Assembly: GCA_965263035.1 (NCBI GenBank)
Contig: OZ253580.1
Coordinates: 4,544,001-4,608,000, forward strand
Source: Acidobacteriota bacterium
GTDB taxonomy: Bacteria; Acidobacteriota; UBA6911; RPQK01; JAJDTT01
Reading direction: 5' to 3'
Length of the DNA: 64,000 nt
The notes beneath the pieces are model-generated. The model was given only the letters and a program-made list of their open reading frames with translations. It did no database searches and had not been told where the DNA came from. Position 1 is the stretch's first letter. Every line of letters starts with the position of its first letter. Shown piece after piece: positions 33,369-64,000 of the stretch. Both the position numbers and the translations under genes were made by a program.

Positions 33369-33387
33369 CGCGGCCACGGTGCAGGAA

Positions 33388-35516: not shown

Positions 35517-35785
35517 ATCCATTCGGGGCTGTGATGCTACTTGAAGCCGGTGGCGAGGTTCGTTTCCAGACACGACCGGTCGAAGGGCTGGAGCGCAAAG
35601 TTCCACGAACTCAGTTCGGAACCTATCTGAAGTTTCGTCGCCAAGTGCTCGATGCGTTTCGCAGCTACCAGTTCCCCGTCATCCAGCTCCATCTCTCCGT
35701 CCGCGTGACATGATCCAAGACCATCCCGTCGGTATCCTTCTGCCATCCTGGGATTCCAAGGAGTTTGATGTATCCTGAGTTTCCA

Positions 35786-39162: not shown

Positions 39163-39181
39163 CGCGGCCACGGTGCAGGAA

Positions 39182-40852: not shown

Positions 40853-40966
40853 CGCGCCTGGGCCTCCAGTGCTAGGTCCACGATCAACGGACTGGAGCCG
40901 CGCTGGTCGAAGCATCATTGCGTTGGGAGCAACTCTTGTAGCTGCGACCCTTGTGGCCGCCTGTCG

Positions 40967-41311
40967 TTACCGTTCACCAGCATGCAGCGCAGGTCGAATG
41001 CCGTGGCGGCTTTCGCCTTGGGCTACCAGGGCCGCAGCCGGTTGAATGCCGGCAATCAGTCTGTTCCTGTCCCCCGCTAGCTTGCGGAAGTCGCACTCGA
41101 CTTGGATGCCATGCCAGAACTTGTCCGACTGACCGAAGAAGGCGCCAAAACGAATCGACATGGGCGGAGTGATCGACCGCCGGCCAAGGCCGATTTCGTT
41201 TATCGTCCTCGGTGAGACACCGACGGCGCCGACCATGGCATTCTGTGAAATCCCCATCGGCTTGAGGTATTCTTCAAGCAAAATCTCTCCGAGCGTGATG
41301 GGCTCTTTCAT
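40967..41311 (-). CDS. higA: HigA antitoxin copy 2
   Basis: Paralog of 35172..35516. Confidence 0.9.
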
Positions 41312-41320
41312 ATCTATATC

Positions 41321-41334
41321 CTATAATATTATAG
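41321..41334. promoter_or_regulatory. Palindrome CTATAATATTATAG upstream of higA-2 (candidate operator)
   Basis: 14-bp perfect palindrome; counterpart at 57512. Confidence 0.5.
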
Positions 41335-41343
41335 CGTCATAAT

Positions 41344-41622
41344 TCAATGGTAGTCAAACTATCGCCACCTGTACTGGTCCGGCATCGGTCCACCTGAAGA
41401 CGATGCGCCACCGGTTGTTGACGCGAATGGAATGAAAATCTGAAAGTGGACGCTTGAGAGCTTCGAGCCTGTTGCCGGGCCATATGGCATGATCCCGGAG
41501 CACACGGGCTTGAGTCATCTGGATCAATTTTCGTAGCGCAACTCGCGATATATTGGCGAACTGGCGGTTGTTTTCGATTCCAAATGGTCTTTCTTGGCTT
41601 CGTCCGAAAATGATTGAATCAT
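41344..41622 (-). pseudogene. higB: HigB (RelE-type killer) toxin with two frameshifts
   Basis: MIQSFSD start at 41622; shifted ALRKL..PGNRLEALK..HSIRVNNRWRIVFRW; terminal IVDYH broken by an extra T. Confidence 0.8.
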
Positions 41623-45715: not shown

Positions 45716-45727
45716 GAGAGGCGCAAC

Positions 45728-45751
45728 CTATACTCCATCCGCTTCCACTAA
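45728..45751 (+). pseudogene. Last 7 codons of beta-propeller copy 3
   Basis: CTA TAC TCC ATC CGC TTC CAC TAA = LYSIRFH*, at the same spacing from the lipoprotein start as in copies 1 and 2. Confidence 0.8.
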
Positions 45752-45770
45752 CACGGTGAAAGTGCCCGAT

Positions 45771-47438
45771 ATGAAAAGACACGGTTTCCTCCTGGCGCCC
45801 CTGTTGGTTGTCGTCTCCTGCGGCAGTCCTTCCCAGACCCCGAACCTCGCCTCAAAAGGCGAGCCGAAGAAGGAGCGGCGGATCCTCTACTACGACTCCG
45901 CCGCCGTCCAGTCGCACAGCTACCTGGACCGCGGGAAGGTGGAGCCGTACATGAGCCTCATCTACGACATCCAAACCCACGACGACTTCCTGGACGCCAG
46001 CGTGCGCATGGTCAAGGGAACCCAGGTGGACACCTACCTGTGGCACATCGGAAACGGGGCCGAGCCGCCGTGGAATATTCCAACGGATCTGCTCTGGTCC
46101 TGTTTCGATTCCTACGAGCAGGTGAATGACATCGTCATCCGGGCCTGCCGTGAACAGGGTTTGGAGGTCTGGGCGTCGATGCGCATGAGCGATCTTCACG
46201 CGGCCTTCCGGTCCCGGACCCTGGAGGAATTGGACGATGTCTTCAAGACACAACACCCCGAGTACCTGATGGCGCCGATGACGGACCGCCAGCTCCCGTC
46301 CGAGCTGACCGAGCAGCGTCTCTGGGTGTCGTTCGACTACACCCACCCGGAGGTTCGGCAGCACCGTCTCGACTACATCGCGAAGACCGCCGCCAACCAC
46401 GACTTCGACGGCTACGAGCTGGACTTCAACCGCATGGGGATCCACTTCCCCATGGGACAGGGACGCCGGAACGCCCACCTGATGACGGACCTGATGCGGC
46501 AGATCCGGGAGCGGCTGAACGCCATCGGAGACCAGCGGGGGCGGCCCTACACCCTGGCGGTCCACGTGATGGATTCCCTGGAGACCAACCTGGAGATCGG
46601 TCTGGACATGGAGGCCTGGGCCCGGGAGGGGCTGGTGGACGTGCTGCTGGTGGGCCTGGGATACATGCCCGACCAGTTGGCCATTGGCCAATGGGTGCGG
46701 TTGGCTGGGGAGACGGGAGTGCAGGTGTATCCGTCCATCAATCCCAACACCATGCGGGCGGGCGCTTGGGAGACTCTGCGGGGTAAGCCTCTGTTCCGCG
46801 AGGGAATGCGGGCGTATGCCGACTACTACCTGGACCAGGGCGCCGACGGCATCTACCTCTTCAACTTCAGGCATGAGCCGACACAGCGGCTGACCGAGGA
46901 GGAGTTCGAGGGAGTGCTGAGCGAGTTGGGAGCGCCCGAGACCATGGCCGGCAAGGACAAGGTCTACGCTATCAACCCCACGGCACATAGTGGCGGGCCC
47001 TTCTATCACGGTTCCGAGCCGGCGTTGTTGCCCATCATTCTGGACCGGGTTGAGCGGAAGCTGCGGTTGCATCTGGGTCCGGCTGCCGAAGACCCGAAGG
47101 CCAGCCTGCGTCTGAGCATATTCACGGCCAAGGCCGGGAAGGGGACTATTCTCTGGGCTCGTCTCAATCACACTCTGTTGTCCGAGGCCGAGAGGGAAGG
47201 GGACTGGTTTCACTTTCAGGTTCCCGCGGGTGTGGCGCGCAACGGCATGAATGAGGTGGGCCTGATTTCAAACGTTCCCGCCGCCGGCCCCTTCGCGGGT
47301 CTGATCGGTCCCCCCAATGCCGATCCTGCCGAGTTCCTGAAGCAGGCCTTCGGCCGAGTCAAGAACGTCATCCAGACTGACCAGGATCCGGTAGTGGTCC
47401 ACCAGATCTTTTTGGAGATCAGCTATCCTGGGAAGTAG
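45771..47438 (+). CDS. TIM-barrel glycoside-hydrolase-like lipoprotein copy 3 (intact)
   Basis: Lipobox VVSC; near-identical to copies 1 and 2. Confidence 0.75.
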   Translation: MKRHGFLLAPLLVVVSCGSPSQTPNLASKGEPKKERRILYYDSAAVQSHSYLDRGKVEPYMSLIYDIQTHDDFLDASVRMVKGTQVDTYLWHIGNGAEPPWNIPTDLLWSCFDSYEQVNDIVIRACREQGLEVWASMRMSDLHAAFRSRTLEELDDVFKTQHPEYLMAPMTDRQLPSELTEQRLWVSFDYTHPEVRQHRLDYIAKTAANHDFDGYELDFNRMGIHFPMGQGRRNAHLMTDLMRQIRERLNAIGDQRGRPYTLAVHVMDSLETNLEIGLDMEAWAREGLVDVLLVGLGYMPDQLAIGQWVRLAGETGVQVYPSINPNTMRAGAWETLRGKPLFREGMRAYADYYLDQGADGIYLFNFRHEPTQRLTEEEFEGVLSELGAPETMAGKDKVYAINPTAHSGGPFYHGSEPALLPIILDRVERKLRLHLGPAAEDPKASLRLSIFTAKAGKGTILWARLNHTLLSEAEREGDWFHFQVPAGVARNGMNEVGLISNVPAAGPFAGLIGPPNADPAEFLKQAFGRVKNVIQTDQDPVVVHQIFLEISYPGK

Positions 47439-47987: not shown

Positions 47988-48869
47988 ATGGGAGAAGACC
48001 ACCTTCTCAAAGTCATCGCTGGTCATCCTGATCATCCTCTGGTCATCGGTGACATCCACATCCCCTGTTACGTCTTGGAGAATGAAAGTCGAGTACTCAC
48101 CCAAAGAGGACTATTCTTCGCAGTCAACAGCCGCATCGGACCCAGTGGGCGTGAAATCCTCAATTTCATAGATCGAAATTGGATAATACCCTTTATTTCC
48201 AATACTTTATCTTTGGGCGTGAAATCTCCAATCCCATTCCTTTGGAAGACAAAGAGGATGCTCGGATATCCCTCTGAACTCCTTCCAGATCTATGTGCCT
48301 CCATCATCAACGCTCATGTAGCCGGAGCCACAACGACCCGACAAGCTTCCATCGTAAGGAGAGCCTACACCTTGCAGGCTTCCTTCGCCAAGGTCGGAAT
48401 AGTTGCCCTGATCGATGAGGCCACCGGATACCAGACCATCCGAGACCGAGAAGCTCTTCACAAGCTCTTGGATCGTTTTCTGAGAGAAGAGCACGCCAAG
48501 TGGGCCAAACGATTTCCAGATGAGTTCTACATACAAATGTTCCGTCTCAAGAATTGGCCGTGGAGAGGCATGAAAATCAACCGACCTCAAGTCGTAGGCA
48601 TCTACACGAATCAGATCGTCTGGGATCGTCTTGCTCCTGGACTCAGAAAAGAACTCGAACGACGGAACCCACCGAACGAGAATGGAGAAAGGCCCTTCAG
48701 ACATCATCAATTTCTAACTGAGGACATCGGCCATCCTGCTCTCCAAGAACACCTTCACGGAGTGATCGCTATCATGCGAGCTGCTCAATCCTGGGCTCAC
48801 TTCCAAGATCTCCTGACGACTGCCTACCCAAAAAGACACGAAAACAAAATCCTCCCATACGACCAATAA
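47988..48869 (+). CDS. P63C-domain protein
   Basis: IPCYVLE, VGIVALIDEATGYQ, WAKRFPDEFY, RPQVVG, RHHQFLT. Confidence 0.85.
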   Translation: MGEDHLLKVIAGHPDHPLVIGDIHIPCYVLENESRVLTQRGLFFAVNSRIGPSGREILNFIDRNWIIPFISNTLSLGVKSPIPFLWKTKRMLGYPSELLPDLCASIINAHVAGATTTRQASIVRRAYTLQASFAKVGIVALIDEATGYQTIRDREALHKLLDRFLREEHAKWAKRFPDEFYIQMFRLKNWPWRGMKINRPQVVGIYTNQIVWDRLAPGLRKELERRNPPNENGERPFRHHQFLTEDIGHPALQEHLHGVIAIMRAAQSWAHFQDLLTTAYPKRHENKILPYDQ

Positions 48870-48879
48870 ACATCCCAAG

Positions 48880-49218
48880 TTACAGATTCTTAAAGTAATC
48901 GTAGACTTCCGTAACTGTCGCCGAATTGTCAAAGTCCTTTAGAACACGACCGCGTAGATTCTCCTCACGAACTTCGATTTTCACTGTCTTATGATTATAA
49001 GAGATCGCATATCGATTTCCGCCAATATGCACCCACATGCAATTCTTAAAGTCTCCATCCTGTGCCCGAACTCTAAGCTCTCCTTCCATTCGCCAAAGAA
49101 TCGCTCCAGTCATCACCAAGATAACCTCCCGGACATTCTTCGCATGATCCCGTGAGCGATACATCACACCTGAAATGTACCTACGAAACTCCCTAATCGT
49201 CGTAATCGTCGCCATCAC
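48880..49218 (-). CDS. VCH_CASS14-like integron-cassette-family protein
   Basis: YISGVM.RS.DHA.NV.E..GAILWR..KN.MWV.IGG.RYAISYNH..IEVRE pattern. Confidence 0.7.
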   Translation of the reverse strand: MMATITTIREFRRYISGVMYRSRDHAKNVREVILVMTGAILWRMEGELRVRAQDGDFKNCMWVHIGGNRYAISYNHKTVKIEVREENLRGRVLKDFDNSATVTEVYDYFKNL

Positions 49219-49470
49219 CTTCTCCTTATCTTGTAAGGGAGATTGTCTGCCTGACTAGATTCCTCCCAATGTAAACGATGTGAAAACTCGGGGATTGTCT
49301 ATTTAACTTGACGTCCCCGCATCACAAGACGCTCTATCTTCCTTCCCACTTGCCAAGGCGAAGTACTGGAGGAGGAGGCCACACAGGACATCTACAGTCT
49401 AATCGTCCGGGTATTATAGGAAGGCCACCTTCCCGAAGATTAACGACACGGCCAAGAAAGAGGGAGCATC

Positions 49471-49941
49471 TCACTTGGAAGCAAGCACCAGGATAAGAAT
49501 GGAAAGAAAATACGCCAAGATACCAATGGGCATCGTCCAGAGCGGACGGACGCCAAAGGATTCCATTTGAGGAGGTGCAAGGGTGACTAAAACTATCACC
49601 AGTCCTGGCGGTCTCACAATCGCTTTCTTCCACTTCTCCCAAATCAGAAGTTTTGCTATGAGTCGCAGCAGGACTGTGTAGTCTTGTCTTTTTAGATTCG
49701 ACACCCAGGCATCGACAAAGGTCGCTGCAAACACAAAGAAAAATGCCACGCGGAACATTCGACCGTAAAACCTTGCCTCATGAACCGCATACATATCCTC
49801 CGATTGGCCACCGGGGACGGCCAGCATCAAATCAATGATTTCCATCCATTGATAGAACTCCCAACCAAAACCGAAATTGAACAAGGCTGTGGCCACCGTC
49901 AGACCGACGAACTTTAACAATCTGACCAAGGACTTCAACAT
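49471..49941 (-). CDS. Hypothetical membrane protein (~4 TM)
   Basis: 156-aa hydrophobic ORF with GAGGA RBS. Confidence 0.55.
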   Translation of the reverse strand: MLKSLVRLLKFVGLTVATALFNFGFGWEFYQWMEIIDLMLAVPGGQSEDMYAVHEARFYGRMFRVAFFFVFAATFVDAWVSNLKRQDYTVLLRLIAKLLIWEKWKKAIVRPPGLVIVLVTLAPPQMESFGVRPLWTMPIGILAYFLSILILVLASK

Positions 49942-51255
49942 CTATTCTGTCCTCTCCTCGTGGATCATCTGTCCACGAAATCGGGACACCTTCAAGATGC
50001 TTTGTTCATCAAATCCCGATCCCGAACGCTTCCTCCAGCAGACTGTAATCGGCGACCAGGTCTAACATCTTCAGAGCACGCTTAGAGAATTGCATCGGGA
50101 CGAGTTTGTCGGTGATAAGCGCTGAGCGCAGTTTCATCCTTTCGACTGGGATATTCGTCAATTGTGCGAGCCGTTTTCGACTGGAGTGAAGGTACGACAT
50201 GCGGTCAAGGTGCCTCTGAATTGGTGTGCGGACACCGGCATTGGCGACGTTAGTATATTCGGCCAGACGCTCGCCAATCTCACCGATTGTACGATCGAAC
50301 CTTAGACGCTTGCACTCAATCACATAGACCACATCGGTATGAAGCTGCCAAGCGAGGACGTCAATATCGCCGAGTTCGCTGCCGCCGCCTAGACTAGTTA
50401 AATCCAACTCGCTATGCACCTTCCAGTGAAGTTCATTGAGCCGTAGAGCAACTCTGCGGTTGAAGTCATGACCATTCCGGTCAGCCACATGCCCGATCCA
50501 GGATTTCATCTCTTCGCTATCGAAGAGACTAGTGGGCAAGTCTCCAGACTCAGCCATGCCGAGGTAACCGAGCGTTCTATCGAGCAACGTTGGCATAATT
50601 AACACATCCGGATCCTTGTTGGTCGAGATCTGCACAAGAGGGCGGCGCATAAGCGACAGACGGCGATTGTAGCGCCAAGGATACCAGTCGCGCTTGTTGG
50701 CTTGCTCAGGTCTATCCTCATCCCACTTTGGCCTAGGTGACAAGGAAAACATTCCAAATGTACGTTCTGGATGCACCACTCCGAGGTGTCTCAATCGACA
50801 CAGCACATTACTTCTCGAGAGCCAGAAAAGCGCTGTGCGTTGCTCCAAAGCTTTCTCAGTGACACTAACAACAAATTTGCTGTATTGAGTTATGCTCAGA
50901 CCGAACTCCTTAGTGAAAGCTGCGTCGAAATCTTTGTCTATCACTTCCCCCTCACCATCACTCACAAGAGCCGAGCCATCGTTGTCCGCAGCCTTCTGGA
51001 AAGTTCGCTCGCCGTACGCCTCCAAAAAAGGGGCTAGCGTCCCGCCGATTGACAGATCAAAGCCAAACGAGCCGTTGGCATGCACGATGGGCTTATGAGC
51101 CACTAGATCATAGTACATTGCATCGCTCTGGCTGGCGCATTCCAAAAGTGTCACCACCTCCGCGATCAGAAAATCCAGGTCCGCACCAGTGCAGGCCATA
51201 CCGCCATGGCACGGCGAGGTGCAGAGTGCCATTTCTGTAATCACGCGACTAGCTA

Positions 51256-52405
51256 GTGTAGTGTCCCGTTAGTTCGTGTATAATAATAGGCGGTTCCTCA
51301 TTCAGAAAGGAGACTGCCTATGCCCCGCGGACGCAAACTTCCCCCCTTGGTACTCAGCGACGAGCAGCGACATCAACTCCAGGGAGTCGCCCGTTCCACC
51401 AGTCTGCCTCACGGCTTGGTCCTGCGAGCCCGCATGATCCTGGCCAGTGCCGAGGGCCTCACCAACCGGGCAGTGGCCGAACGGGTCGGGGCTTCGCCCC
51501 AAGCCGTCGGCAAGTGGCGTCGACGCTTCCTCGAACTCGGCGTTCAGGGCTTGCATGACGAGCTTCGTCCCGGTCGTCCCCGCAGCTACGACGACGAGAA
51601 GGTCGCCCAGGTGATCAGCCGCGCTCTGCAGCAGAAGCCGGCCAACGCCGAGAACTGGAGCGTGCGCTTGATGGGCGCCGCCGAGGGCGTCTCCAAGACC
51701 ACCGTGCAGCGCTGGTTCTCGCTTTTTGGCATCAAGCCTCATCTGGCCCAGACCTTCAAGCTCTCCAACGACCCCTTCTTCATCGAGAAGGTCCGAGATA
51801 TCGTGGGACTTTACCTCCATCCCCCCGACCACGCCATGGTGCTGTGCGTCGACGAGAAGTCTCAAATCCAGGCCCTGGACCGGACCCAACGGGCCCTGCC
51901 CCTGGGTCTCGGGTACGTTCAAGGATATACGCACGATTACATCCGCCACGGCACCACCACCCTTTTCGCGGCCCTGGATGCCGCCACGGGTCGCGTGATC
52001 GCTCAATGCAAGAAGCGCCACCGCCACCAGGACTTCCTGGCCTTTCTGAGGTTGATCGACCGGGAAGTGCCGCCCGATCTGGACCTCCACTTGGTCGTCG
52101 ACAACTATGCCACGCACAAGCATCCACGGGTCCGGGCCTGGATTGCCAAGCGGCCACGCTACCACTTACACTTCACCCCCACCTACGCCTCCTGGCTCAA
52201 CCAAGTGGAGCGCTGGTTCGGTTTGATCACACAGCGAGCGATCAAGCGCACCTCGTTCCGCAACGTGAGACACTTGGTGAAGACGATTGAGGAATTCACC
52301 CATCGATACAACCAAGAGGCGAAACCCTTCGTGTGGGCCGCCACAGCCCAATCCATCCTGGACAAGCTAGCACGATTATCTACTCGTATTTCCAGGACAC
52401 CACAC
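51256..52405 (+). mobile_element. IS630-family element
   Basis: TA duplication within CTAG; TIRs GTGT(A/G)GTGTCC. Confidence 0.93.
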
Positions 52406-52408
52406 TAG
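51320..52408 (+). CDS. IS630 transposase
   Basis: DELRPGRP, CVDEKSQIQAL, HDYIRHGT, VVDNYATHK, FTPTYASWLNQVERWF; stop codon formed by the target site. Confidence 0.95.
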   Translation: MPRGRKLPPLVLSDEQRHQLQGVARSTSLPHGLVLRARMILASAEGLTNRAVAERVGASPQAVGKWRRRFLELGVQGLHDELRPGRPRSYDDEKVAQVISRALQQKPANAENWSVRLMGAAEGVSKTTVQRWFSLFGIKPHLAQTFKLSNDPFFIEKVRDIVGLYLHPPDHAMVLCVDEKSQIQALDRTQRALPLGLGYVQGYTHDYIRHGTTTLFAALDAATGRVIAQCKKRHRHQDFLAFLRLIDREVPPDLDLHLVVDNYATHKHPRVRAWIAKRPRYHLHFTPTYASWLNQVERWFGLITQRAIKRTSFRNVRHLVKTIEEFTHRYNQEAKPFVWAATAQSILDKLARLSTRISRTPH

Positions 52409-54151
52409 GCCAGCAAGATCTCGTTGGCCATATCGCTCGTTCACAACTTGTACTACTTCCGCGGTATTGCTGTGCATTGCAAGTAGAGCAGCTGCCGCGC
52501 GGTGCCAATCCCTCCGATCCTTCTGGATTGCCTCGAAGTTCAAGAGAGACCGCTCGATCACGGTCGCACGGTCGAGGGTAAGCAACCGAGCCTTGATGCG
52601 TTCCCAAACCGCGTCCACCGCTTGTATCAAAATCTTATTAGCCCGAGACTCAGGGATTGGCCCTGGAGGTGAAGTCCAGCCCGCCTTACGTGCGAGGCCG
52701 AGACGACTCCATGCCAAATCCTCTGGTTGCAAGAACCTTGGTTGCGGCAACGGGACTGAGTCGTAGATTATATCTTTGGGATTTGTAGCAGGAATGAGGT
52801 GCAAGCAGCGTGCGTCGTCAGAACGGACTACATTCTGCACGAATTCGCTCAGCGCCGCCGCGTGTGGGACCGGGACATCGCAGAGCATGTACGCACCTCG
52901 CACCAGTGCGGCAATCATTAGGCGGTCGCCCACATTCTGCCTGTTAACAAAACTACGCAGATATCCGGGCGAGCACATGATCAACACTTTTCCGTTATAT
53001 ATCTCAACCGATGGTGCCGATGAAGGCTCTTTGATCAACGCGAAGTCGTCCGTAAATCTTTCTATATCTGGGAACCGAAGGCGGTAGGTGACAGGCGCTG
53101 GAGGTAGCGTTGTTAGTTGTTTCTCGAGTAACGGTGCCAAAGGAACCAGCCAGTTAAGGACCAATCTTACTATTTCGGCTACAAGGCGTCGAAGCCGTTT
53201 CGGTCCTCGAACCTCGTTACAATGAACCCACCATGGACGTGTGCTGGTCTCGACACACGCCAACAGTTCGCCCCCGACTGCGTGGTGGGGACTAACGAAA
53301 ACAAGCTGGTTTTGAGTTTCGCGAAAGAAGGTACTCGGAGTTTCACGCTCGACCTCGATCCATGATTTCTCATCTGGGGCGATGATGCCATGCCGGTCGA
53401 GAGCTACGCGCAGCCGATGACGCAAGAGCGCAATGGAGTCGGTGTGCAAATAGATTAGCCCAAGTTCCATGCTCTCTGGAATGAGTTCAAAATCCCGGCA
53501 AGAGGCGGATGCGTAAAGGTTTAAAAAGCCACCCAGGTTCAAGATGGAGACATCACGTTTTTGAAGCGCGGTCTCTTGATTGAGTAGCTTCCAGGCTCGA
53601 AGAGCTGTGAACTTGGATTCGCTCCCCAGAAAAATGAAGTCAGAGATGGGCAAGGCCAAACGCTGCCAACTAGGTGGAGGTTCGCCAAACTCGGCGAAGA
53701 ATCCACGTCCAATACCGCCGTGGACGAGCAAAGTCAATCCGCGGCGGTAATCGCGTTTGGACGCAAGAACCGCCGTGCGTGCGTTAATGCACTCGCCGAT
53801 CGCCCTCACGAGTGACTGAACGCTCTGAAGCCCTTCCCGAGCGGTCTCAGCGAGATCGTCTGGGACAAAGATTAGATGGACGTAACCGCCATCGTCGAAC
53901 TCCCCCACAAGATTCACTATACCTTCCGACCCGATTGGCTCCGGCGCGGTGGTCGATTGGATATTCCACGCTTGGCATCCCAGCGCGTAGACATTGTAGA
54001 GTTGTTCCTCAGTAGTTGCTGCATGAAGTACCTCAAGGTTCCCGGCCACGGTGGCTTGCTCAATGATAAATCTTCGGATGGCCGCGCCGATAGCAGTCGG
54101 GAGCGCGACGATCGTCTGGTCGTTGAAACGCACGAGAGGGCGGCGCTCTAA

Positions 54152-55916
54152 CCTGCATTTCTCATCAGTAGAACAATAAACGGAAGTTGAACCGTCGTCT
54201 GGGTGATTCTTTATCCATACGAGTTCAAGAGGCAGTTTTCGTGCTCGAACGTGCCGACCAACGGCCAGATGCAGCGCTTCTCCAGAGCCTTTTGACGCCC
54301 ATCCTGCGCTTCTGAGCGACGACTCTCGACCCGGTGCCCACTCCGGGGCGCAGTCCATCCTGGGGACTCCCAAGTCGCCATCGTCCAAAGAGTTCTTTCC
54401 ATCCGTTGCTAACAGCGAAGCGGGAGGGCTTGCACTTGCGTCAGAGCCGTCCTCAACAGCGCCGCATACGGATAGCTCTCGGAAAAGGACAACCAGACCT
54501 TGCGGCTGGTGATCCGGACCTGTGCCCCGATCTTCAGCAATCTCACCCGCAGGGTCCAGCTCTGCGCCCGCGCCAGCTTCGTCCCCGCCAGCCCCACCCG
54601 TCGCAACGTCTCCATCATCACGTAGGCGAATGCCGAGAAATACAACCGCAGTTGATTCCCCGCCAGCTTCCGGGTCGACGTGCGGTCCGCAAACAGACCC
54701 ATCTGCTGTTCCTTTATCCGATTCTCCATGTCTCCCCGCGCGCAGTAGACCTCCTCGTACAATCTTCGCCCATCGCATTCCTGGACCGGGACCGAAGTCA
54801 CGATGAATCGCGGGTTCTTTCCCCGGGGCAGGTGCTCCACCTTCGCCACCACCCGGCGCTCGCACGACCAACTCTTGTGCGTCTGATAGCGCAGTTCCTG
54901 GAACTGCCTCACGGCCTTCCCGATCGCCCGCTGCAACTGCCGGACGGTCTCCATCCGGGTCGCGATCCTCCGCTTCAGCCGATCGTTCTGCGCCAACCCC
55001 AGGACGTAATCGATCCCTTCCTTCTCGCACCAGACCATCAACTCGTCGTTGGAGAAGGCACTGTCCCCTCGAACCGTGATCCGCACCTGGGGCCACGCTT
55101 CACGCAGCCGCCTCACGATTGGTTCCAACTCCGCCACCACCCCGTGGGCCGCGCCTCGATCCGCCGTGCGCAGCCGCGCACGCAACAGGTGTTCCCCACA
55201 GAAGACGTACAGCGGCAGGTAGCAGTAGCGTTTGTAATAGCCGTGGAAGAACCGTCCCTCCTGCTTCCCATGCAGCGGATCGTCCGTGGCGTCTACATCC
55301 AGGATCACCTCCTCCGGGGGCTCCGGATGCGCTTCCACAAACACCTCCAGCAGCAGCTCGTCCATCCCCGCCGGGTCGGCCACGATCTTCTTGTACGCGC
55401 CCTCCGGTCCCTCCAACGGAGTCCGCTCCAGTCGGTTCAGGGTGCTCTTGCCTGCCAGCGGCTTGCCTCGATCCGACTCCACGCGCCGGAACTCCCCCGT
55501 CAGATCATCTCGATCACACAACAGCGCCAAGAGCCGGTCCCGGCACAACTCGTCGTGGTCGTTGAGGTCCTCGTAGCCCAGGCACAGCCCCAGCACCCGC
55601 TGTTTGATCAACGCCTCCACCGGGTGTTCGACTCGATCCGAGTCTCGATAGTCGGTGAAGCATTCGCTCAGACGACCCAGAATCCGGGTCCGCTGCTCCA
55701 CTTCGCGCAGGAGCACGCCACCGGCGTCGGAGGTGATCTCGCCGCCGTCGAACCGGCCCACGACATCCCGTCCGTCCAGGCCCTGAAATCTGAGCTTTAT
55801 TCTGGTACACTCTGCGGTCATAAGGTCGCGTCCCTTCTGCTTTGTAAGTTATTGATTACACAACACTTATAGCAGAAAACGCGGCCTTTATCAATCTTTC
55901 TGATGAGATATCCGGG
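54152..55916 (-). mobile_element. IS1380-family element
   Basis: TIRs CCTGCATTTCTCATCAG / CCCGGATATCTCATCAG; TSD CTAA; IHF-like site near 55846-55858. Confidence 0.93.
54409..55821 (-). CDS. IS1380 transposase
   Basis: TSDAG, GYEDLND, LDVDATDD.HGKQE, RGDS, YCARGDMENRIKE. Confidence 0.95.
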   Translation of the reverse strand: MTAECTRIKLRFQGLDGRDVVGRFDGGEITSDAGGVLLREVEQRTRILGRLSECFTDYRDSDRVEHPVEALIKQRVLGLCLGYEDLNDHDELCRDRLLALLCDRDDLTGEFRRVESDRGKPLAGKSTLNRLERTPLEGPEGAYKKIVADPAGMDELLLEVFVEAHPEPPEEVILDVDATDDPLHGKQEGRFFHGYYKRYCYLPLYVFCGEHLLRARLRTADRGAAHGVVAELEPIVRRLREAWPQVRITVRGDSAFSNDELMVWCEKEGIDYVLGLAQNDRLKRRIATRMETVRQLQRAIGKAVRQFQELRYQTHKSWSCERRVVAKVEHLPRGKNPRFIVTSVPVQECDGRRLYEEVYCARGDMENRIKEQQMGLFADRTSTRKLAGNQLRLYFSAFAYVMMETLRRVGLAGTKLARAQSWTLRVRLLKIGAQVRITSRKVWLSFSESYPYAALLRTALTQVQALPLRC

Positions 55917-57024
55917 CTAAGGCAGTATGTCCCAGCGTTTCTTCGACAAGTAGGGCTGCGTGCCTCGGCTGAAAGACAAACGGGTTGAGATCTTCAGGGG
56001 ATACGCCCAACGCAAAGATATCAGCTTCGCTAAAGCTCACGTGAGCTGCACACGACCTGAGGGTTGAAGCAGTGATCTTTATGGGTTGCTTCGGTAGACT
56101 TTCCGTGAGCGTGTTCCGGGTTGCGCAGACACGTTCAGCTACGGCTTCGCTGACGCGAAGCATGGCCATGACACGCCTCTGTACCACGGTTACCCAGGGA
56201 CGGTCCCTGATCCTAGACAGGGCAGCGAGGCACGTCTGAACATAGTGATCATTGTTGTGCCAATCGCCCATGAAAAGGCGAGCGTTGCCAAACGAAGTGA
56301 CGACATTTGAGACGAAAACATCTTCAATGGGGTCTTCAATCTCCGTAATCCGATCTTGGAGGATGATGACATTCAGCCATTCCTGCACCTGTCGTTGGGT
56401 CGGTGCCAGCGAGCCGTGACATGTCAACGCCGCAAGGTGAATGAGTGCCTCGATCCGTTTAGTAGCGGTATGGTTCTCAGGTTGTGTCAGCAATCCTGCG
56501 AGAGGTTGCGCTAGTGAAAGGAAGTTGAATTTTTCAAGGCGCCGAATCAACCTCTTGAGACGTAAGGCAATATCTTTGATTCGATAAACGTCATTGGCTA
56601 CAGACATTGCCATGAATTCGTTCATTGCATTACTAATCTGATCGTGTGGCGGCATATTTTCACTCATAACACATGCTCAGCGGATAACAGCGTGGCAACT
56701 GAGTTCACGATGATAATACTCAGAGGCTCTGTCTCGGTCTGAAATTGGGCCGTCGTCATGGGTTGGAATTAGACTGGTTGTCGCGCATGGAGCGGCTCGG
56801 GGAAGCCAAGTCGGGATTCCGCAACGTGACCGAGGCAAGCCAACACGACCAGTCCGGGCGGCCGAACAGTGATAAAGATGATGGGGGACTTCGCCAAAGA
56901 TCGGCAATCTCTTGGAACTTATTGAACCTCTCTCCGGTGCTTTCTCGGTGCCCTTTTGAGCCTTTCTCCCGGGCTTCCCGCAGAGACTATTGAGACGGGA
57001 GCGACCCTCCCAGAGAGTATGGCG

Positions 57025-57055
57025 GAGAGAGAAGGTGACAGTCACCTTCTCTCTC
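57025..57055. repeat. 31-bp palindrome (REP-like or terminator)
   Basis: GAGAGAGAAGGTGAC-A-GTCACCTTCTCTCTC. Confidence 0.7.
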
Positions 57056-57158
57056 GCGGTCACGTTCTCTCGCGACCGGCGGGCGGGAGCCGCACAGATC
57101 GAAACATCATTGAGTTGGGGGCAATTCCTGTAGCAGCGACCCTTGTGGCTGCCTGTCG

Positions 57159-57503
57159 CTACCGTTGACCAGAATGCGGCACGGGTCGAGCACCGTGGCG
57201 GCCTTCGTTCCGGGCTGCGACCGCCGTAGCGGGTTGAATGCCGGCAATCAGTCGGATCCTGTCCCCGGCCAGCTTGCGAAAGTCACACTCGACTTGGATG
57301 CCATGCCAGAACTTGTCCGACTGACCGAAGAAGGCGCCAAAACGAATCGACATGGGCGGAGTGATCGACCGCCGGCCAAGGACGATTTCATTAATCGCCC
57401 TCGGGGAGACACCAATGGCGCGGGCCATTGCATTCTGTGAAATCCCCATTGGCTTGAGGTATTCCTCAAGCAAAATCTCTCCGGGCGTGATGGGCTCTTT
57501 CAT
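57159..57503 (-). CDS. higA: HigA antitoxin copy 3
   Basis: Paralog of copies 1 and 2, including homologous 3' flank. Confidence 0.9.
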
Positions 57504-57511
57504 TCTCCTTT

Positions 57512-57529
57512 TCCTATAACGTTATAGGA
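57512..57529. promoter_or_regulatory. 18-bp palindrome TCCTATAACGTTATAGGA (candidate HigA operator)
   Basis: Perfect palindrome just upstream of the higA RBS. Confidence 0.55.
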
Positions 57530-57536
57530 TAGTTCT

Positions 57537-57600
57537 TCAATGTGAATCTACGATAACCTCCGATCGCCACCTGTTCTGGCCCTGTCTCGGTCCACCTGAA
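57537..57600 (-). pseudogene. higB: higB 3' remnant cut by an IS1380-like end
   Basis: FRWTETGPEQVAI; abuts CCCGGATTATTCAC at 57601. Confidence 0.65.
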
Positions 57601-57780
57601 CCCGGATTATTCACGGATGGGATTCAAACAGCTCTTGTTCGGCCCGAACACGGGCATCGGACCGCCTCAATCCGATCCTCGTCTGAACCTGCTTCCCCTG
57701 TTCTCGTGACGCTACGAAAAGTGGGGGAAGTCCTGATCCTTCTATCACTGCTTCCTCCAGATGGCTCGTGGTGAACTCCT

Positions 57781-60700
57781 TCATGAGACCGCCTCCCCGG
57801 ATAGCACTTTCCAGAGGCGCTTGTATCCGCCCCCTGAGAGAGCAGCGCTGTCCGGGCGGGCGCGGTGCCAGTCGCGTTCACTGAGGTTCTTCAGGAACTC
57901 GCGCGCCTGGACAACGGAGTACCGGCCATCGTTCTCGCCGACTGTCTCGCGGTATAGCTTGCCAAGATTCTCTGCGACGCTACGGGGTGCAGCATTCATA
58001 CGCATCAGAACCGCGTCTTCCGTCCTGACGCCGTGGTAGATCATCGCCGGAAGCGCGTTGATCCTATGGGCCTCGGCTTCGGACAGCCTATCGAAGTCGA
58101 GACCGGAAACGCGGCTCAACGCGGCAATGCCCCAAGTTCCGCTATTGACAATGGTCCGGTAGATCGCACGGCAGGCATCCGTAATTGCCCGGGTTCCACC
58201 CTCGTCGTCTGATTCGCGGCTGAAATACTTCCGGGCGATGGCGTCGATTGCCTTGCCGTTGACCCAGTCGCGCGTGATTTCGGAAATCCGCATTCGGCCG
58301 CGACCTTCTCCGCGAATCTCATCAAGTTGCCTTTTCAGTTGCGGCACTTTCAACATCACTCCGTACAAATCGGCGATCCTGCCGCCTTCGCCGAAAAGGC
58401 TCTCCGGAGCCCAATCCGAGGGCGTGAGCCGAGTCTCGAGATTGCGCAGTTCCATCATCGCTCTTGTAACGCCTTCCGGGGAGAATCCCGTCGAGTCCGC
58501 AAGCTCGGCGACGCCACCGGGCATGTCGGCGAGCCTGTGGGCGTAGGCGCGCGTCGCGTCCAGCAACGCGTCGGCCTTATGCCGTTGCGAAGGGTCGTTT
58601 CGCAGCGACGTATATCCGAAGGTCTGCCGAAGAAGTTGTTCAGAGTCCGACAGCACGGCGTCCAAGTTCTTCTTTTCTGCCCACAGATGGGCGACATAGC
58701 AGCGGAAGTCTTCCCATTGATCCTGCCACAGCACCTCGGAGAGTCTTGCCAGTTCCCCTTGCGCGGCAAGTTCGTTCAATTGCGACACCAGACGGGAGAC
58801 AAGCGCGCCCGTGCTGCGGCTCACGAACTCGATGACGGATTGCGGGTCAGAACCTTCCGCAAGGCCGATTACACCCACGCTGTCATGGCCAATCCGGCCC
58901 GCGCGACCGGCAAGATTCCAGAATTCGCGCGACGACATTTCCACTCCATAGGGATACTTGTGCGTTTGCAGAAAAACGGAGGCAACCGGGAAATTGATGC
59001 CCTGCGCAATGGTGATGGTCGCACATAGGATCCTAAGGGTTCCTGTCTCGGCGAGCCATTCCATCAGGGCTCGTGCATCGTCGGACAAGCCGGCATGATG
59101 GACGCCCACCCCCTTCTCCAGGGTCGCGACAAGCTGGAAGGTCGAGCCGACCTCGGTGCGCAGGAAGTCCTGAACAAGCCGGATAGCCGGCGGCACCGGT
59201 TCGAGATCCGGCAGGCTTTGCGCGGCCTTTGCCGCCATTTTCCACACAGTGGGAATGTTGTTTGCGATAGCGATACTCGTGCCACGGGTAGACATGACCG
59301 TTGCCATTGCCGCCGTCTGGAGACCCAAGCCGTTTTGTCGACCCTTGGTGATGACGCGGCTTTTGGGTACATTGATGGGCCTCACCCCACCAACGCGGTG
59401 CGTGCCACTAAGCGCCATGGCCTTCGGCGTCGCGGTCAAGGTCTCGAAACGGAGATGCCAGCCGGCGCGCTGGCTGTTGTCCGGAGAAGCGCCATAGAGT
59501 CCGATAATCCGTTCGTTGGGCTTCCAAGGCACGGTGCCGAGGCTGATGGCCCGGCCCGCACTGACATCCTGAGCCAGCCACCGCGCAACCGATTCGGCCC
59601 CCTCGACATAGGGCGTGAGAAGCAGGAAGTTGGCCCGCGGACAATCCATCTTCACGGTGGCGAGCAACAGCTCGATGCGCAGTCCCCGGTCTTTGGATTC
59701 AATATTATGGGCTTCGTCCATGACCACGAGGGCCAGCGGGCGTTGCTCCACCTTCTTGTTGCGGATCAAGAGAGACAGTTTCTCGGGTGTGGCCACGAGA
59801 ATGTGGAAGGGCTGATGCGTTTCCGTCAGCAACTCTTCCTCAAAGGTATCCACCTCGACCGCCGCTGTTAGTTGTTCGACCCTAAGGCCGATGGGATCGA
59901 AATCCGTTTTCAGCCCCCGGGTGATCTGCGCGCACAGGGCCCGCGTCGGCGCCACATAGGCAACCCAGCCCTTTTCGGCATCGAACTGGTTCAGCGCCTG
60001 CAGGATGCGGAACTGCGCAAGCAATGTTTTTCCGCCCGATGTCGGCAAGTCGATCACGATCGCGGTCTTGGCCTGATCGAGGAGTCCCTGTTCCAAGAGC
60101 GCCGCGCGCTGCGGCGGCAGAAGTTCGAACATCGCCCGATGTTCGCGATGGGTGAGGGAGCGGACAAAGTGCGTCGTCCGTGAATTGACGGCGCGTGTTG
60201 CCCACCACAGGGAGTTGGTGACCATGATCCGCGCGGTTGCATGCATCCAGCGGAGGATCAATTCATGCTGGGCATCGCCTGACGCCGTCGCCGCTCGGAT
60301 GGCGCCGTCATAGTGCTTGTCGAGCGAGCCAAACGGGTTGGCCGGCTGACCTTGCAGCATGTAACGGGCCAGGATCTCGGTACCTCTTGCCCAGTGATAA
60401 AGTGCCGCGAGCCGCAGGGCGATTGCCCTGTCCTCTGCGGGCGAGCCGTTCTGGAGACGACCCTTCTCAAAGCGCTTTTGATCCTCGCGCAGTCCGGCGA
60501 TGATCTCCCTGATCCGGTCAAGATCGTCCCAGCCGCGCTTGCGAAACAACCGGACCCAGCAGTGAAAAAGTCGATACAGCAGGCGGCGGTCCCACGGCGT
60601 CCCGGCGACGCTCGGAGGCTTGAGGGCCTGTTCATTCTCCTTGTACCAGCGGCGAAGGTCGGACCAGCGGTCTCCGCAATAGGCGACGGCGGAAAGCTGT

Positions 60701-61056
60701 AGCACAAAGAAAAGGCGATCGTGCCTCTCAGCTGGAACCGGCAGCAAACGGCGGATGTCGAACGCGCGGAACGATGCAGCGGTCGCCTGATCGCGCAGTT
60801 CCATGTTCTCCCCGGAAGGCCGACTCAGTTCCTCCAGCCCTTCGATCGCAGCCATCTCGAACGCGAGTGCAACCCGTTCCAGCAAAGTGTCGTGGTCCTC
60901 GCTCCACGAAAACGAAAAGGCGATCTGTCCGCCAACAGCCCGATGAGCGAGGCGTTCATTCACGAGCCTTTCAGCACGCGCCAGATCAGCTGCGCCGATC
61001 GCGTTCACGGCCCAGTGACTTCGGAGCGCCTCGAGGGCCTGCCTGGACAGACTCAT
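57781..61056 (-). CDS. Ski2-like DEAD/DEAH helicase, HamB-like (Hachiman)
   Basis: LPTSGGKT, TPEK, DEAH, GVHHAGL, TIAQGINFP, NLAGRAGR; long helical N-terminus; ATGA overlap with the nuclease gene. Confidence 0.8.
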   Translation of the reverse strand: MSLSRQALEALRSHWAVNAIGAADLARAERLVNERLAHRAVGGQIAFSFSWSEDHDTLLERVALAFEMAAIEGLEELSRPSGENMELRDQATAASFRAFDIRRLLPVPAERHDRLFFVLQLSAVAYCGDRWSDLRRWYKENEQALKPPSVAGTPWDRRLLYRLFHCWVRLFRKRGWDDLDRIREIIAGLREDQKRFEKGRLQNGSPAEDRAIALRLAALYHWARGTEILARYMLQGQPANPFGSLDKHYDGAIRAATASGDAQHELILRWMHATARIMVTNSLWWATRAVNSRTTHFVRSLTHREHRAMFELLPPQRAALLEQGLLDQAKTAIVIDLPTSGGKTLLAQFRILQALNQFDAEKGWVAYVAPTRALCAQITRGLKTDFDPIGLRVEQLTAAVEVDTFEEELLTETHQPFHILVATPEKLSLLIRNKKVEQRPLALVVMDEAHNIESKDRGLRIELLLATVKMDCPRANFLLLTPYVEGAESVARWLAQDVSAGRAISLGTVPWKPNERIIGLYGASPDNSQRAGWHLRFETLTATPKAMALSGTHRVGGVRPINVPKSRVITKGRQNGLGLQTAAMATVMSTRGTSIAIANNIPTVWKMAAKAAQSLPDLEPVPPAIRLVQDFLRTEVGSTFQLVATLEKGVGVHHAGLSDDARALMEWLAETGTLRILCATITIAQGINFPVASVFLQTHKYPYGVEMSSREFWNLAGRAGRIGHDSVGVIGLAEGSDPQSVIEFVSRSTGALVSRLVSQLNELAAQGELARLSEVLWQDQWEDFRCYVAHLWAEKKNLDAVLSDSEQLLRQTFGYTSLRNDPSQRHKADALLDATRAYAHRLADMPGGVAELADSTGFSPEGVTRAMMELRNLETRLTPSDWAPESLFGEGGRIADLYGVMLKVPQLKRQLDEIRGEGRGRMRISEITRDWVNGKAIDAIARKYFSRESDDEGGTRAITDACRAIYRTIVNSGTWGIAALSRVSGLDFDRLSEAEAHRINALPAMIYHGVRTEDAVLMRMNAAPRSVAENLGKLYRETVGENDGRYSVVQAREFLKNLSERDWHRARPDSAALSGGGYKRLWKVLSGEAVS

Positions 61057-61850
61057 GACACCGCTCCCGCCCTGGCCGCGATAGCGCCGTCGCCGATCCC
61101 TTCAAGGCGACCGACCGGTAGGTACAACGCAATTAGCTCGATCCTCGTGCCATCGGGGCAGCCCTTGCCGAGACTCTCGACCCGCACTCTCACATCGTCC
61201 TTGTGTGGCGAGACGTCCCGGACGAGAAATCCGAACAGCCGCACGTCGGACTTGTTGACCAGATAGCGTTTCCCCGCCCGTCGGAAACGTTGCAGCCAGG
61301 CGGCCCCCTTGGCGCGATAGCCGAGGTACTTGAAGAGGTCGTCCCGTATGGAGGTACTGTCGCGAAGATCTTCAAGCTGCTGCTTGAGACCCGTGCGACC
61401 ATACATCGCTCCCGGCGGGTACCTGTCTTCTGAGGCTGTCTTGACTTCGCCGAAAGCCAGACAATCGCTTTGGGCATCTGCGTGCAGACCAACTAGATCA
61501 GCTCCCGGAAGGCTGGAACCGCGCTTTCGCTCGTCGCGTCCGTCGGGCCACGGGAAGCGGCAGTCGCGGTGATCAGTCAGCCAGGTCTCGGCGATTGCCT
61601 CTCCCACCCGCCAGTCCTCGATTCGCTCCGGTTCGGCAAGAACGCGGCGCAGGCCATCCTGCTCGAATGCGGTGTCGACGATTCCGCGCAGTATCTCTTC
61701 GATGTCGGCCCTGCCTTCGTCGTCGAACAACACGGCGGCCACCGGGCCATTCAATGCCGCGTCGAGTTCCTCGCCGGACCACTCAAGACCAAGCCCGGTG
61801 GAGGGTGGATCACCCGCGGAGTAATCGGCTTCTCCCGATGCTACTGTCGC
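61053..61850 (-). CDS. HamA-like PD-(D/E)XK nuclease (start uncertain: TTG 61754, or a mutated GTG at 61850)
   Basis: VGEAIAE, LPGADLVG, FGEVKT. Confidence 0.7.
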   Translation of the reverse strand, partial: ATVASGEADYSAGDPPSTGLGLEWSGEELDAALNGPVAAVLFDDEGRADIEEILRGIVDTAFEQDGLRRVLAEPERIEDWRVGEAIAETWLTDHRDCRFPWPDGRDERKRGSSLPGADLVGLHADAQSDCLAFGEVKTASEDRYPPGAMYGRTGLKQQLEDLRDSTSIRDDLFKYLGYRAKGAAWLQRFRRAGKRYLVNKSDVRLFGFLVRDVSPHKDDVRVRVESLGKGCPDGTRIELIALYLPVGRLEGIGDGAIAARAGAVS

Positions 61851-62212
61851 GCCACGGCCTCCACCAGTTTCTCGGATTCACGGACGCGGATTTCGCCGGA
61901 GATGAGCTTTGGGAGAAGGGCATCGCGGCGGGCGGCGAGGCTAACGGCGTCCTTCATGTTAGCGGAGAGCCGACCGTACGGCGGGCGGCCAAGAGGCTCA
62001 AAGACCCGAAGAATCGCGTGCGACGACACAAGCACGGATATCAAGCGAAACGACATCTTGCTGATCTCCGGACATGTCGAGCCGCCGGCAGTGTCCCCAA
62101 TGTGACCGAGACTGTGATGACACCAGTTCAATACATACAGGCTCTGCAAGCGCTTCTCGCATCTCATTGCCATGGATCCTTGGTCCACGGCGGTCGGCAC
62201 CTCGGCGAGCGC
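61841..62212 (-). pseudogene. hsdS: Type I hsdS C-terminal relic
   Basis: GSTCPEISK..LAARRDALLPKLISGEIRV; 5' part replaced by AT-rich sequence near 62215. Confidence 0.8.
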
Positions 62213-62867
62213 TAGGTGTCCAGTTCTCACTCGGAAATTCGTAAGTTACTGAGAAATAAGGAGTAGGAGGTATTTTCAAGCCCCGGTGTTGTCATGGTCA
62301 GTTGTTACGCTATGGGTGACAAATCAAAGAGAACAAACGACTTACACAAAAACGAAGGCTTGAAACATGCGTCGAAAACAGGAAAATCAGATTCCGCTCC
62401 CAAGGTCTTGGACGACAACTCCTTAATCTTGAATCCGGTTCTACACGTTCTGTGTGACACAGGCAACTCACCTCAGGGGACTACCGGTCTCTCCGCCGAG
62501 CAGGTCCTACGGGTGAGAGCAAGAACGTGACTGTTCCCTTCACGCTTTTTCTTGTCCCCCCATTCCTCCTCGTCCTCTGGCTCCATCGGAGTTTGACGGC
62601 GGAGAGCCGACGCTCCCAGACTATTCTTTTTCTGTCCGGATTCCGCCGGCCCGCGACCGGTGGGGGAGCATATGAGAAGTCTTCGGGTTTTCCAGGGGCC
62701 GCAAAAGAGCCGGATCGCCCGCACGGGACGAAGAACCGATGCTCCTCTGAGAGAACGGGAGAGTCCACTACCAAATCGGTGTCGCAATGCCAGGACCAAG
62801 TTTCATCCCGCCGGAATACTCCCGGTCTCCTGGGATTCTGGACAGTTTGAGATATCCTGAGTATCCG

Positions 62868-64000
62868 ATGAACAGCACCGATCTGAACTGGATCGCCAAC
62901 TACATCTGGGGCATCGCCGACGACGTTCTGCGCGATCTCTACGTGCGCGGCAAGTACCGCGACGTCATTCTTCCCATGACCGTTCTGCGGCGGCTGGATG
63001 TGGTGATCGAGGACACGAAGCAGGCCGTGCTTGATATGAAAGCCAGTCTCGATGGGCTGGGTATCGTCGAGCAGGATCCGGCCCTGCGGCAGGCCTCGAA
63101 ACAGGAATTCTACAACACCTCGAAGTTCACCTTGCGCGACTTGAGGTCCCGCGGCAACCGGCAGCAGCTCACGGCCGACTTCAAGGCCTACCTCGACGGT
63201 TTTTCTCCCAACGTCCAGGATATTCTGGACAACTTCGAATTCCGCAACCAGATTCCACGGCTGTCCAGGGCCGATGCCTTGGGCTCGCTGATCGAGAAGC
63301 TCACTTCGCCGGAAATCAATCTGAGTCCCGACCCGGTCCTGAATGCTGACGGGTCCGTGCGGCACCCCGGCCTCGACAACCACGGGATTGGGTCGATCTT
63401 CGAAGAGCTGGTTCGGCGTTTCAACGAGGAGAACAACGAGGAGGCGGGGGAACACTGGACCCCGCGGGACGCCGTGACGCTGATGGCGAAGCTCCTCTTC
63501 CTGCCCATCGCCGACGAGATCAAGTCCGGAACCTACCTGCTCTACGACGGCGCCTGTGGGACCGGCGGCATGTTGACCGTGGCCGAGGAGACCCTGTCGC
63601 GGCTCGCCGCGGAGCGCGGCAAGCAGGTCTCCACACACCTCTACGGCCAGGAGATCAACGCCGAGACCTACGCCATCTGCAAGGCCGACCTGCTGCTGAA
63701 GGGCGAAGGCGCGGCGGCCGACAACATCGTGGGCGGGCCGGAGCACTCGACACTCTCCAACGACGCGTTCCCATCCAGCGAGTTCGACTTCATGCTCTCC
63801 AATCCGCCCTACGGCAAGAGCTGGAAGAGCGACCTGGCACGCATGGGCGGCAAGAAGGAGATGCGCGACCCGCGTTTCGTGATCGAGCATGCGGGCGATC
63901 CCGAGTACTCGCTGGTCACGCGGACCAGCGACGGCCAGATGCTGTTTCTCGCCAACAAGCTCTCCAAGATGAAACGGCACACGCCCCTGGGCAGCCGGAT
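62868..64000 (+). CDS. hsdM: Type I RM methyltransferase subunit (runs off the window)
   Basis: IWGIADDVLRD..GKYRDVILPMTVLRRLD, GEHWTPRD, YDGACGTGGML, GQEIN, NPPYG; missing from the ORF track because there is no stop. Confidence 0.95.
   Translation, partial: MNSTDLNWIANYIWGIADDVLRDLYVRGKYRDVILPMTVLRRLDVVIEDTKQAVLDMKASLDGLGIVEQDPALRQASKQEFYNTSKFTLRDLRSRGNRQQLTADFKAYLDGFSPNVQDILDNFEFRNQIPRLSRADALGSLIEKLTSPEINLSPDPVLNADGSVRHPGLDNHGIGSIFEELVRRFNEENNEEAGEHWTPRDAVTLMAKLLFLPIADEIKSGTYLLYDGACGTGGMLTVAEETLSRLAAERGKQVSTHLYGQEINAETYAICKADLLLKGEGAAADNIVGGPEHSTLSNDAFPSSEFDFMLSNPPYGKSWKSDLARMGGKKEMRDPRFVIEHAGDPEYSLVTRTSDGQMLFLANKLSKMKRHTPLGSR

Follow-up and report, generated by a model that had tools for sequence, protein, structure and literature searches.

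A divergent Upx anti-phage gene, reassembled from three pieces parted by two insertion sequences, in an Acidobacteriota genome

Bacterial defense genes can be broken up by mobile elements, and the pieces can then be hard to name. We describe such a gene in a 64,000-nucleotide stretch of the genome of an Acidobacteriota bacterium (assembly GCA_965263035.1, contig OZ253580.1, positions 4,544,001 to 4,608,000). This stretch is the window, and all positions below are counted from its first letter. The gene lies on the minus strand between 50009 and 56667, in three pieces separated by two insertion sequences (ISs). Very probably, it is a divergent but typical Upx gene, that is, a gene for a single-protein anti-phage system, which has been inactivated by two independent transpositions. 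The copy in the window is a pseudogene: the full-length protein cannot be made from it. The gene is not new and its novelty is low, as it is an inactive copy of a known family, whose description the reference list of PMC13601566 dates to 2020.

Reassembly of the gene

When 54148-55916 and 51254-52405 are removed in silico from the window, the minus-strand segments 56667-55917, 54147-52406, and 51253-50009 join into 3738 nucleotides that run from ATG to TGA (1245 codons, with the sole stop at the end). The original prediction, made by reading the letters of the window, had proposed a hidden 1245-residue gene in three segments with two ISs to be removed, and the splice gives exactly that frame. 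The frame is not open by chance, since the five remaining frames of the rejoined 3738 nucleotides hold 34-67 stops each, and moving either excision boundary by a number of bases that is not a multiple of 3 brings in 24-28 stops. The parts of the locus are as follows.

55917..56667, minus strand: Upx piece 1 (codons 1-250 and the first base of codon 251), where the N-terminal sensor domain begins; PADLOC, NCBIfam, and 9wuf_A matches
54152..55916 (block 54148..55916), transposase on the minus strand: IS-B, IS1380 family, 1765 bp; NF033539 match, inverted repeats, CTAA duplication
52406..54147, minus strand: Upx piece 2 (last two bases of codon 251 to codon 831); PADLOC, NCBIfam, and 9wuf_A matches
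51256..52405 (block 51254..52405), plus strand: IS-A, IS630 family, 1150 bp; NF033545 match, inverted repeats, TA duplication
50009..51253, minus strand: Upx piece 3 (codons 832-1245 and TGA), the C-terminal domain with the PD-(D/E)XK core; PADLOC, NCBIfam, and 9wuf_A matches, AlphaFold2 model
50309..50371, minus strand: catalytic motif GDIDVLAWQLHTDVVYVIECK (GDID..IECK), residues 1126-1146; translation and alignment to 9wuf_A

Piece 2 completes the N-terminal domain, spans the middle domain, and begins the C-terminal one. The junctions had been predicted to be clean, and comparison with homologs bears this out: both align without gaps to 8/8 full-length homologs, and conserved residues stand at both. 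Codon 251, which spans the IS-B site, encodes E here and in all 8; the second junction, between L831 and A832, falls within the motif AGLASR, conserved in the two closest homologs.

IS-B is flanked by direct copies of CTAA (54148-54151 and 55917-55920), a 4-bp target duplication, and 14 of the first 17 nucleotides agree between its terminal inverted repeats. Its transposase is the minus-strand open reading frame (ORF) at 54409-55821, 470 residues long, which matches NF033539 over profile positions 3-418 of 419 (387 bits against a cutoff of 180; E 8e-116). A 512-residue ORF on the plus strand of the element was considered as the transposase and rejected, as it matches no family and the 470-residue ORF is the IS1380 transposase. 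The element sits in codon 251, within the N-terminal domain, at about residue 250 of the Upx protein of Salmonella enterica NCTC6026 (SeUpx).

IS-A is flanked by TA (51254-51255 and 52406-52407), and its restored target reads C-TA-G. Its inverted repeats agree at 13 of the first 14 nucleotides, counted from the TA. The transposase, at 51320-52408 on the plus strand, matches NF033545 (268 bits against a cutoff of 100; E 1e-79) and has Pfam DDE_3 and helix-turn-helix (HTH) domains; its ORF reaches the last base of the element, and its stop, TAG (52406-52408), is made up of the duplicated TA and the flanking G of the target. This element lies between codons 831 and 832, in the C-terminal domain at about SeUpx residue 844, upstream of the nuclease core (1121-1272). 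IS630 elements typically target TA in CTAG, and IS1380 elements typically give duplications of 4-5 bp. The two elements resemble these families in their transposases, which score above curated cutoffs, in their terminal inverted repeats, and in their TA and 4-bp duplications. The window contains no second copy of either IS, and PLSDB contains no close copies: the matches there are 66-69% identical (the best ones 67-69%), among them a distant match of IS-B (67% identity) that is annotated as an IS1380 transposase.

Family membership, catalytic site, and presumed mechanism

All three pieces match models of Upx, in order. The PADLOC model (PDLC02221, 1271 positions) is matched at 13-248 by piece 1 (E 7e-29), at 251-835 by piece 2 (E 6e-49), and at 843-1255 by piece 3 (E 3e-61). 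NCBIfam NF042954, "anti-phage protein Upx" (1240 positions), is matched at 5-232 (E 7e-27), 234-820 (E 8e-58), and 827-1224 (E 4e-67), respectively. In both profiles, the residues left unmatched at each junction equal the profile positions left unmatched; nothing is lost or doubled. The chain of the SeUpx structure solved by cryo-electron microscopy (9wuf_A) gives the same picture: piece 1 matches 28-245 (E 8e-16), piece 2 matches 251-832 (E 1e-22), and piece 3 matches 845-1232 (E 6e-38). Piece 3 was modeled by AlphaFold2 with 31 homologs as input (pLDDT 77.4, pTM 0.73), and the model was compared with the PDB by Foldseek. Its sole significant match is 9wuf (E 1.7e-20, probability 1.00, TM 0.65); weaker matches (E 0.02-0.5) are mostly restriction-like nucleases (the restriction-like endonuclease domain of R2, BstEII, Hjc, and Can2/Card1).

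The C-terminal PD-(D/E)XK motif named in the original prediction falls on the catalytic residues of SeUpx. D1129, E1144, and K1146 of the rejoined protein align to D1161, E1176, and K1178, which PMC13099982 and PMC13601566 name as catalytic. Across 49 family sequences this triad is kept almost throughout (D in 48/49, E in 47/49, and K in 46/49). In sum, the window protein resembles SeUpx as a single polypeptide of ~1250 residues that matches it in order over 28-1232, has a C-terminal PD-(D/E)XK core with the same D...ExK, has no partner gene, and is set in a defense island. It differs from SeUpx in its distance (25% identity over piece 3, by Foldseek) and in its interruption by two ISs, which leaves it inactive.

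Close relatives are intact. Piece 3, compared with longer proteins (8000 scored candidates, E<=1e-5), has 352 homologs; among the best 120 of the 352, most are 1220-1260 residues long and all 120 carry PF28173. The closest full-length protein among the matches listed, P0002 (1261 residues), is 73% identical to the rejoined protein, and seven others are 47-65% identical. Relatives of the same clade (such as P0002, P0003, and L001) come mostly from uncultured Alphaproteobacteria, Gemmatimonadota, Binatia, and Acidobacteriota. They share 47-73% full-length identity with the window protein, gap-free junctions, and the same invariant residues, and differ from it in that their genes are uninterrupted. 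A scan of species-representative genomes gave 65 homologous loci, in Alphaproteobacteria, Gemmatimonadota, Acidobacteriota, Binatia, Verrucomicrobiota, Nitrospirota, and others, the best of them 61% identical to the window protein. This locus set is skewed to the clade of the window, its search patterns having been drawn from the alignment of the window protein with its relatives (A1).

The homologs tend to lie among defense genes. At least one PADLOC match (E<=1e-10) is found within 5 kb of 11/16 intact loci, and 22/117 ORFs match in all; the 16 are what was left of 22 loci picked from the 47 intact ones after 6 were dropped over size. The systems matched include Gabija, AbiE, parts of DISARM, restriction-modification (RM), SoFic, and PD-Lambda-4. 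The sole control is a rough one: 1/13 ORFs in the housekeeping part of the window (1-24 kb) matches PADLOC at E<=1e-5. The ORFs on either side of the gene, 56677-57063 upstream and 49471-49941 downstream, have no tblastn match in the 65 loci, which indicates that the gene stands alone, as Upx does. The upstream ORF (128 residues) was also weighed as a partner or regulator and rejected, as it has no family match and no homolog in those loci.

Could the gene instead found an undescribed family of single-gene sensor-nucleases, and so be a new defense candidate, as the original prediction held? Two observations invite the idea. A Pfam-A scan found no family for any of the three pieces, and the only NCBI names among the 120 matches listed, those of three intact relatives (P0074, P0076, and P0109), are all "hypothetical protein". 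The copy of Pfam-A that was scanned lacked PF28173, the family tag on the listed homologs. Against the idea stand the full-length, in-order match to the Upx models and to a solved structure, the conserved triad, and the ranking of 9wuf as best structural match, which together make it barely credible. The system is already described, in the Upx models, in 9wuf, and in two papers of 2026, and the claim of a new candidate has to be given up. The related claim that the first ~1000 residues belong to no family holds for the Pfam-A copy scanned and fails for PADLOC, NCBIfam, and the PDB. A scan against PHROGs gave no match for the three pieces.

Intact Upx has been studied in several hosts. Activity is reported for homologs from Salmonella (SeUpx), Hydrobacter (HpUpx), and Pyrinomonadaceae (PbUpx) in PMC13099982 and PMC13601566. 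PMC13099982 describes SeUpx as a monomer of an N-terminal, a middle, and a C-terminal domain, with a cryo-electron microscopy structure. The C-terminal domain is there a canonical PD-(D/E)XK, Mg2+-dependent 3'-5' exonuclease on single-stranded DNA, the middle domain enhances its activity, and the change E1176A/K1178A abolishes defense against phage PhiV-1. The same paper proposes the phage ejection protein gp16 as activator and the N-terminal domain as a second, atypical nuclease. PMC13601566 reports that three Upx homologs, with identity down to 16%, are switched on by the ATPase domain of various large terminases, that co-expression of terminase with Upx is toxic, and that gp16 did not activate. 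In the AlphaFold 3 models of that paper, the terminase ATPase, locally unfolded, is threaded through the N-terminal sensor. It also likens Upx to Avs2, an antiviral STAND NTPase: both recognize the large terminase of tailed phages and set off a toxic effector, and they differ in that it finds no sequence or structural homology between them. The Upx pieces have no Avs match in the PADLOC scan.

Because its effector site is conserved and its sensor region has full length, we assign the same sensor-nuclease scheme to the window protein. By analogy with the studied homologs, the N-terminal and middle region of the intact protein would sense a phage protein, most likely the terminase. Sensing would then license the C-terminal, Mg2+-dependent PD-(D/E)XK nuclease (D1129/E1144/K1146), and the licensed nuclease would degrade DNA and stop the infection, probably with loss of the cell. 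The original prediction of a large single-gene sensor-nuclease defense gene was right in kind.

Several points weigh against a wholly typical, inactive Upx gene. The pieces score 93 + 195.5 + 226.2 bits with NF042954, ~515 bits when summed, and miss its equivalog cutoff of 1900 bits. This cutoff delimits close relatives of the Salmonella protein; to miss it places the window copy in a distant clade, and argues against orthology with the tested Salmonella protein rather than against family membership, given that tested homologs share as little as 16% identity in PMC13601566. Next, the N-terminal residues that PMC13099982 calls a catalytic "simplified PD-(D/E)XK" site (D122, D127, R129, E147, and D173) are V, N, R, A, and E at positions 123, 128, 130, 148, and 174 of the rejoined protein (within 55917-56667), so that 3/5 are not conserved (D122>V, D127>N, and E147>A); the mapping comes from one pairwise HMMER alignment. 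In addition, the two papers of 2026 disagree on the trigger (terminase ATPase domain in PMC13601566, gp16 in PMC13099982). Finally, the data are those of one window, and an intact second copy of Upx may lie elsewhere in the genome.

The N-terminal residues are of interest beyond this locus. Among 49 Upx sequences, the position of D122 is D in 2, that of D127 is N in 43 and D in 2, and that of E147 is E in 6. Such poor conservation indicates that the residues of the proposed second nuclease are not family-wide, and it would favor a sensor-only N-terminal domain in the dispute between the two papers.

Age and cause of the disruption

Both insertions look recent, as had been predicted. The target duplications, inverted repeats, and transposase ORFs are intact, and the codons show no decay. 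Of the columns invariant among 30 relatives, the window protein keeps 97/98, with a single S-to-T change, and of the near-invariant ones 180/185; in a leave-one-out comparison, intact members score no higher. As 3.44% of single substitutions would create a stop, the stop-free frame bounds divergence since inactivation at ~86 substitutions, or 2.3% (95% level), a bound that assumes substitutions only and no selection, so that "recent" is a relative term and this, too, tells against too firm a reading.

The simplest history asks for little. The first insertion, whichever of the two it was, would have killed the gene and left a neutral landing site in an IS-rich, horizontally acquired island; a dead gene being a neutral target, the double insertion needs no special explanation. 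The gene pieces, at 51-55%, are lower in G+C than the window (60%) and the IS elements (61%), which fits such an island.

Disruption is not confined to the window. Among the 65 homologous loci, 47 are intact, 1 is cut by the end of a contig, and 17 are disrupted (17/64 of those assessable). ISs of six families interrupt the Upx homolog at 5/64 assessable loci, listed here with positions within each locus.

L016:13349-14575: IS4
L027:5093-10000: IS256, IS4, and IS66 (three transposase genes)
L033:10953-12357: IS3 (158 bits, just under the cutoff of 160)
L055:3720-5628: IS21
L062:10206-12139: ISAzo13

In addition, L018 and L033 look like halves of one gene, ~100 kb apart on the same contig. Among the entries listed by a literature search on the inactivation of defense genes by ISs, none is specific to Upx.

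The original prediction took two insertions in one gene as a hint that inactivation is tolerated or favored; the double insertion does not establish this. The counts raise the possibility that loss of Upx is selected: a terminase sensor joined to a lethal nuclease may be toxic to its own cell, for example after the gain of a prophage, and IS knock-outs may be favored in several lineages. It would fit that two of the three ISs found in 64 kb lie in one 3.7-kb gene, that disruption recurs at 17/64 loci through, in five cases, ISs of six families (IS4, IS256, IS66, IS3, IS21, and ISAzo13), and that terminase is toxic alongside Upx in PMC13601566. However, the disruption rate stands without a matched control from other large island genes, and many of the loci are metagenome-assembled genomes, where some frameshifts may be sequencing errors; for these reasons, the counts do not show selection for loss. 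The second insertion is neutral once the first has hit, and no terminase or prophage gene is present among the 31 window ORFs scanned against PHROGs. Two neighboring large defense genes, PDC-M23B (3.3 kb) and a TrlF/Ppl-like gene (2.8 kb), are intact, a comparison with n=2 only. On balance, we hold selected loss to be unlikely. A combined proposal, in which Upx is recurrently destroyed under selection because a suicide nuclease is a liability and the non-conserved N-terminal site favors the sensor-only reading, is a little less likely again.

The insertions could also act as a reversible OFF switch, with precise excision of both ISs restoring defense in a subpopulation. Removal of each element with one copy of its duplication does give the exact frame, and both transposase ORFs are full length. 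Yet an exactly restorable frame is to be expected of any young insertion that has a target duplication, precise excision would have to happen twice, independently, and the window gives no sign of heterogeneity; such a switch is very improbable. Slightly more improbable is an assembly artefact, with IS copies misplaced inside an intact gene: ISs are a classic source of misassembly, but these two have their own inverted repeats and duplications of family-typical length exactly at the frame breaks, and the window offers no second copy of either with which to recombine.

The surrounding island and the meaning of the locus

The original prediction placed the gene next to Hachiman and RM genes. The setting is indeed a defense island with type I RM genes, and the Hachiman part looks Hachiman-like. 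Canonical Hachiman pairs a HamB-type helicase with a HamA (DUF1837) nuclease. Here the gene at 57781-61056 has PDC-M23B as its stronger match (1397 bits) and HamB as a weaker one (E 2e-48); its neighbor at 61053-61754 matches PDC-M23A (E 9e-90) and has no Pfam match. This intact minus-strand pair (57781-61754) is best called the Hachiman-like candidate system PDC-M23, and is probably not canonical Hachiman. Beyond it, 61841-62230 (minus strand) encodes a 129-residue C-terminal fragment of a type I RM specificity subunit, on the strand opposite to hsdM, and 62787-63998 (plus strand) is an hsdM gene (E 1.5e-128) that runs off the window. Type I RM remnants are also found at 35911-36279, and a short N-terminal fragment of hsdM is repeated at 35722-36114 (83.5% identity).

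Another intact gene, at 27422-30229 on the plus strand, encodes a 935-residue protein with PHP and SMC-like ATPase parts. Its match to the TrlF family reaches 443 bits (cutoff 350), and a weaker one is to anti-phage Ppl (E 1e-47 in NCBIfam, 3e-38 in PADLOC); this TrlF/Ppl-like gene is a second defense-type gene of the same 2020 naming set in the island.

Close to the start of Upx, a perfect palindrome of 15+15 nucleotides with a 1-nucleotide center (57025-57055) lies between Upx and a HigA-like antitoxin gene (57159-57503), inside the doubtful 128-residue ORF; it may be a terminator or an operator. A promoter and terminator scan of 49300-57700 found sites no more numerous than in shuffled sequence. 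The HigA-type HTH antitoxin module is present in three related copies (84% identity; 40888-41398, 57080-57600, and 35086-35516), and the copy beside Upx appears to have no recognizable HigB partner. Just downstream of Upx, 47988-49218 encodes a P63C-domain protein (phage-associated, phrog_2384, E 6e-86) and a homolog of the VCH_CASS14 "integron cassette protein"; both lie in the lowest-G+C stretch of the window (48%).

Repeats are a further feature of the window. A 3.5-kb segment is duplicated at 31972-35522 and 37766-41317 (93% identity), and its 1.7-kb core occurs a third time at 45726-47425. These copies encode proteins of 450-584 residues that match no family (weakly Glyco_hydro_18 only), beside HTH and HigB-like toxin-antitoxin modules. 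A 165-bp inverted repeat (97.6% identity) at 1326-1490 and 23920-24084 encloses ~22 kb of housekeeping-type genes; its second arm is closely followed by the gene of an IS1595-family transposase (24694-25638) and by the fall in G+C that marks where the island begins.

What the locus teaches is in part a matter of practice. Reading raw sequence can recover a defense gene whose pieces, annotated fragment by fragment, would probably go without a name. In routine annotation this gene would probably get no name, since its pieces sum to far fewer bits than the Upx cutoff and its named intact relatives are hypothetical proteins. Conversely, "hidden" genes need a check against libraries of defense-system profiles before they are called new.

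For the family, the window adds one inactive, distant Upx copy and a small data point on the turnover of defense genes in IS-rich islands, where 17/64 loci are disrupted, 5 of them by ISs. Were loss selected after all, the double insertion and the five other IS-bearing lineages would be traces of selection and not of neutral decay. The residual interest lies in this recurrent disruption of Upx and in the N-terminal site: the weakly conserved residues proposed for a nuclease there add a modest, checkable point to the question of how Upx works.

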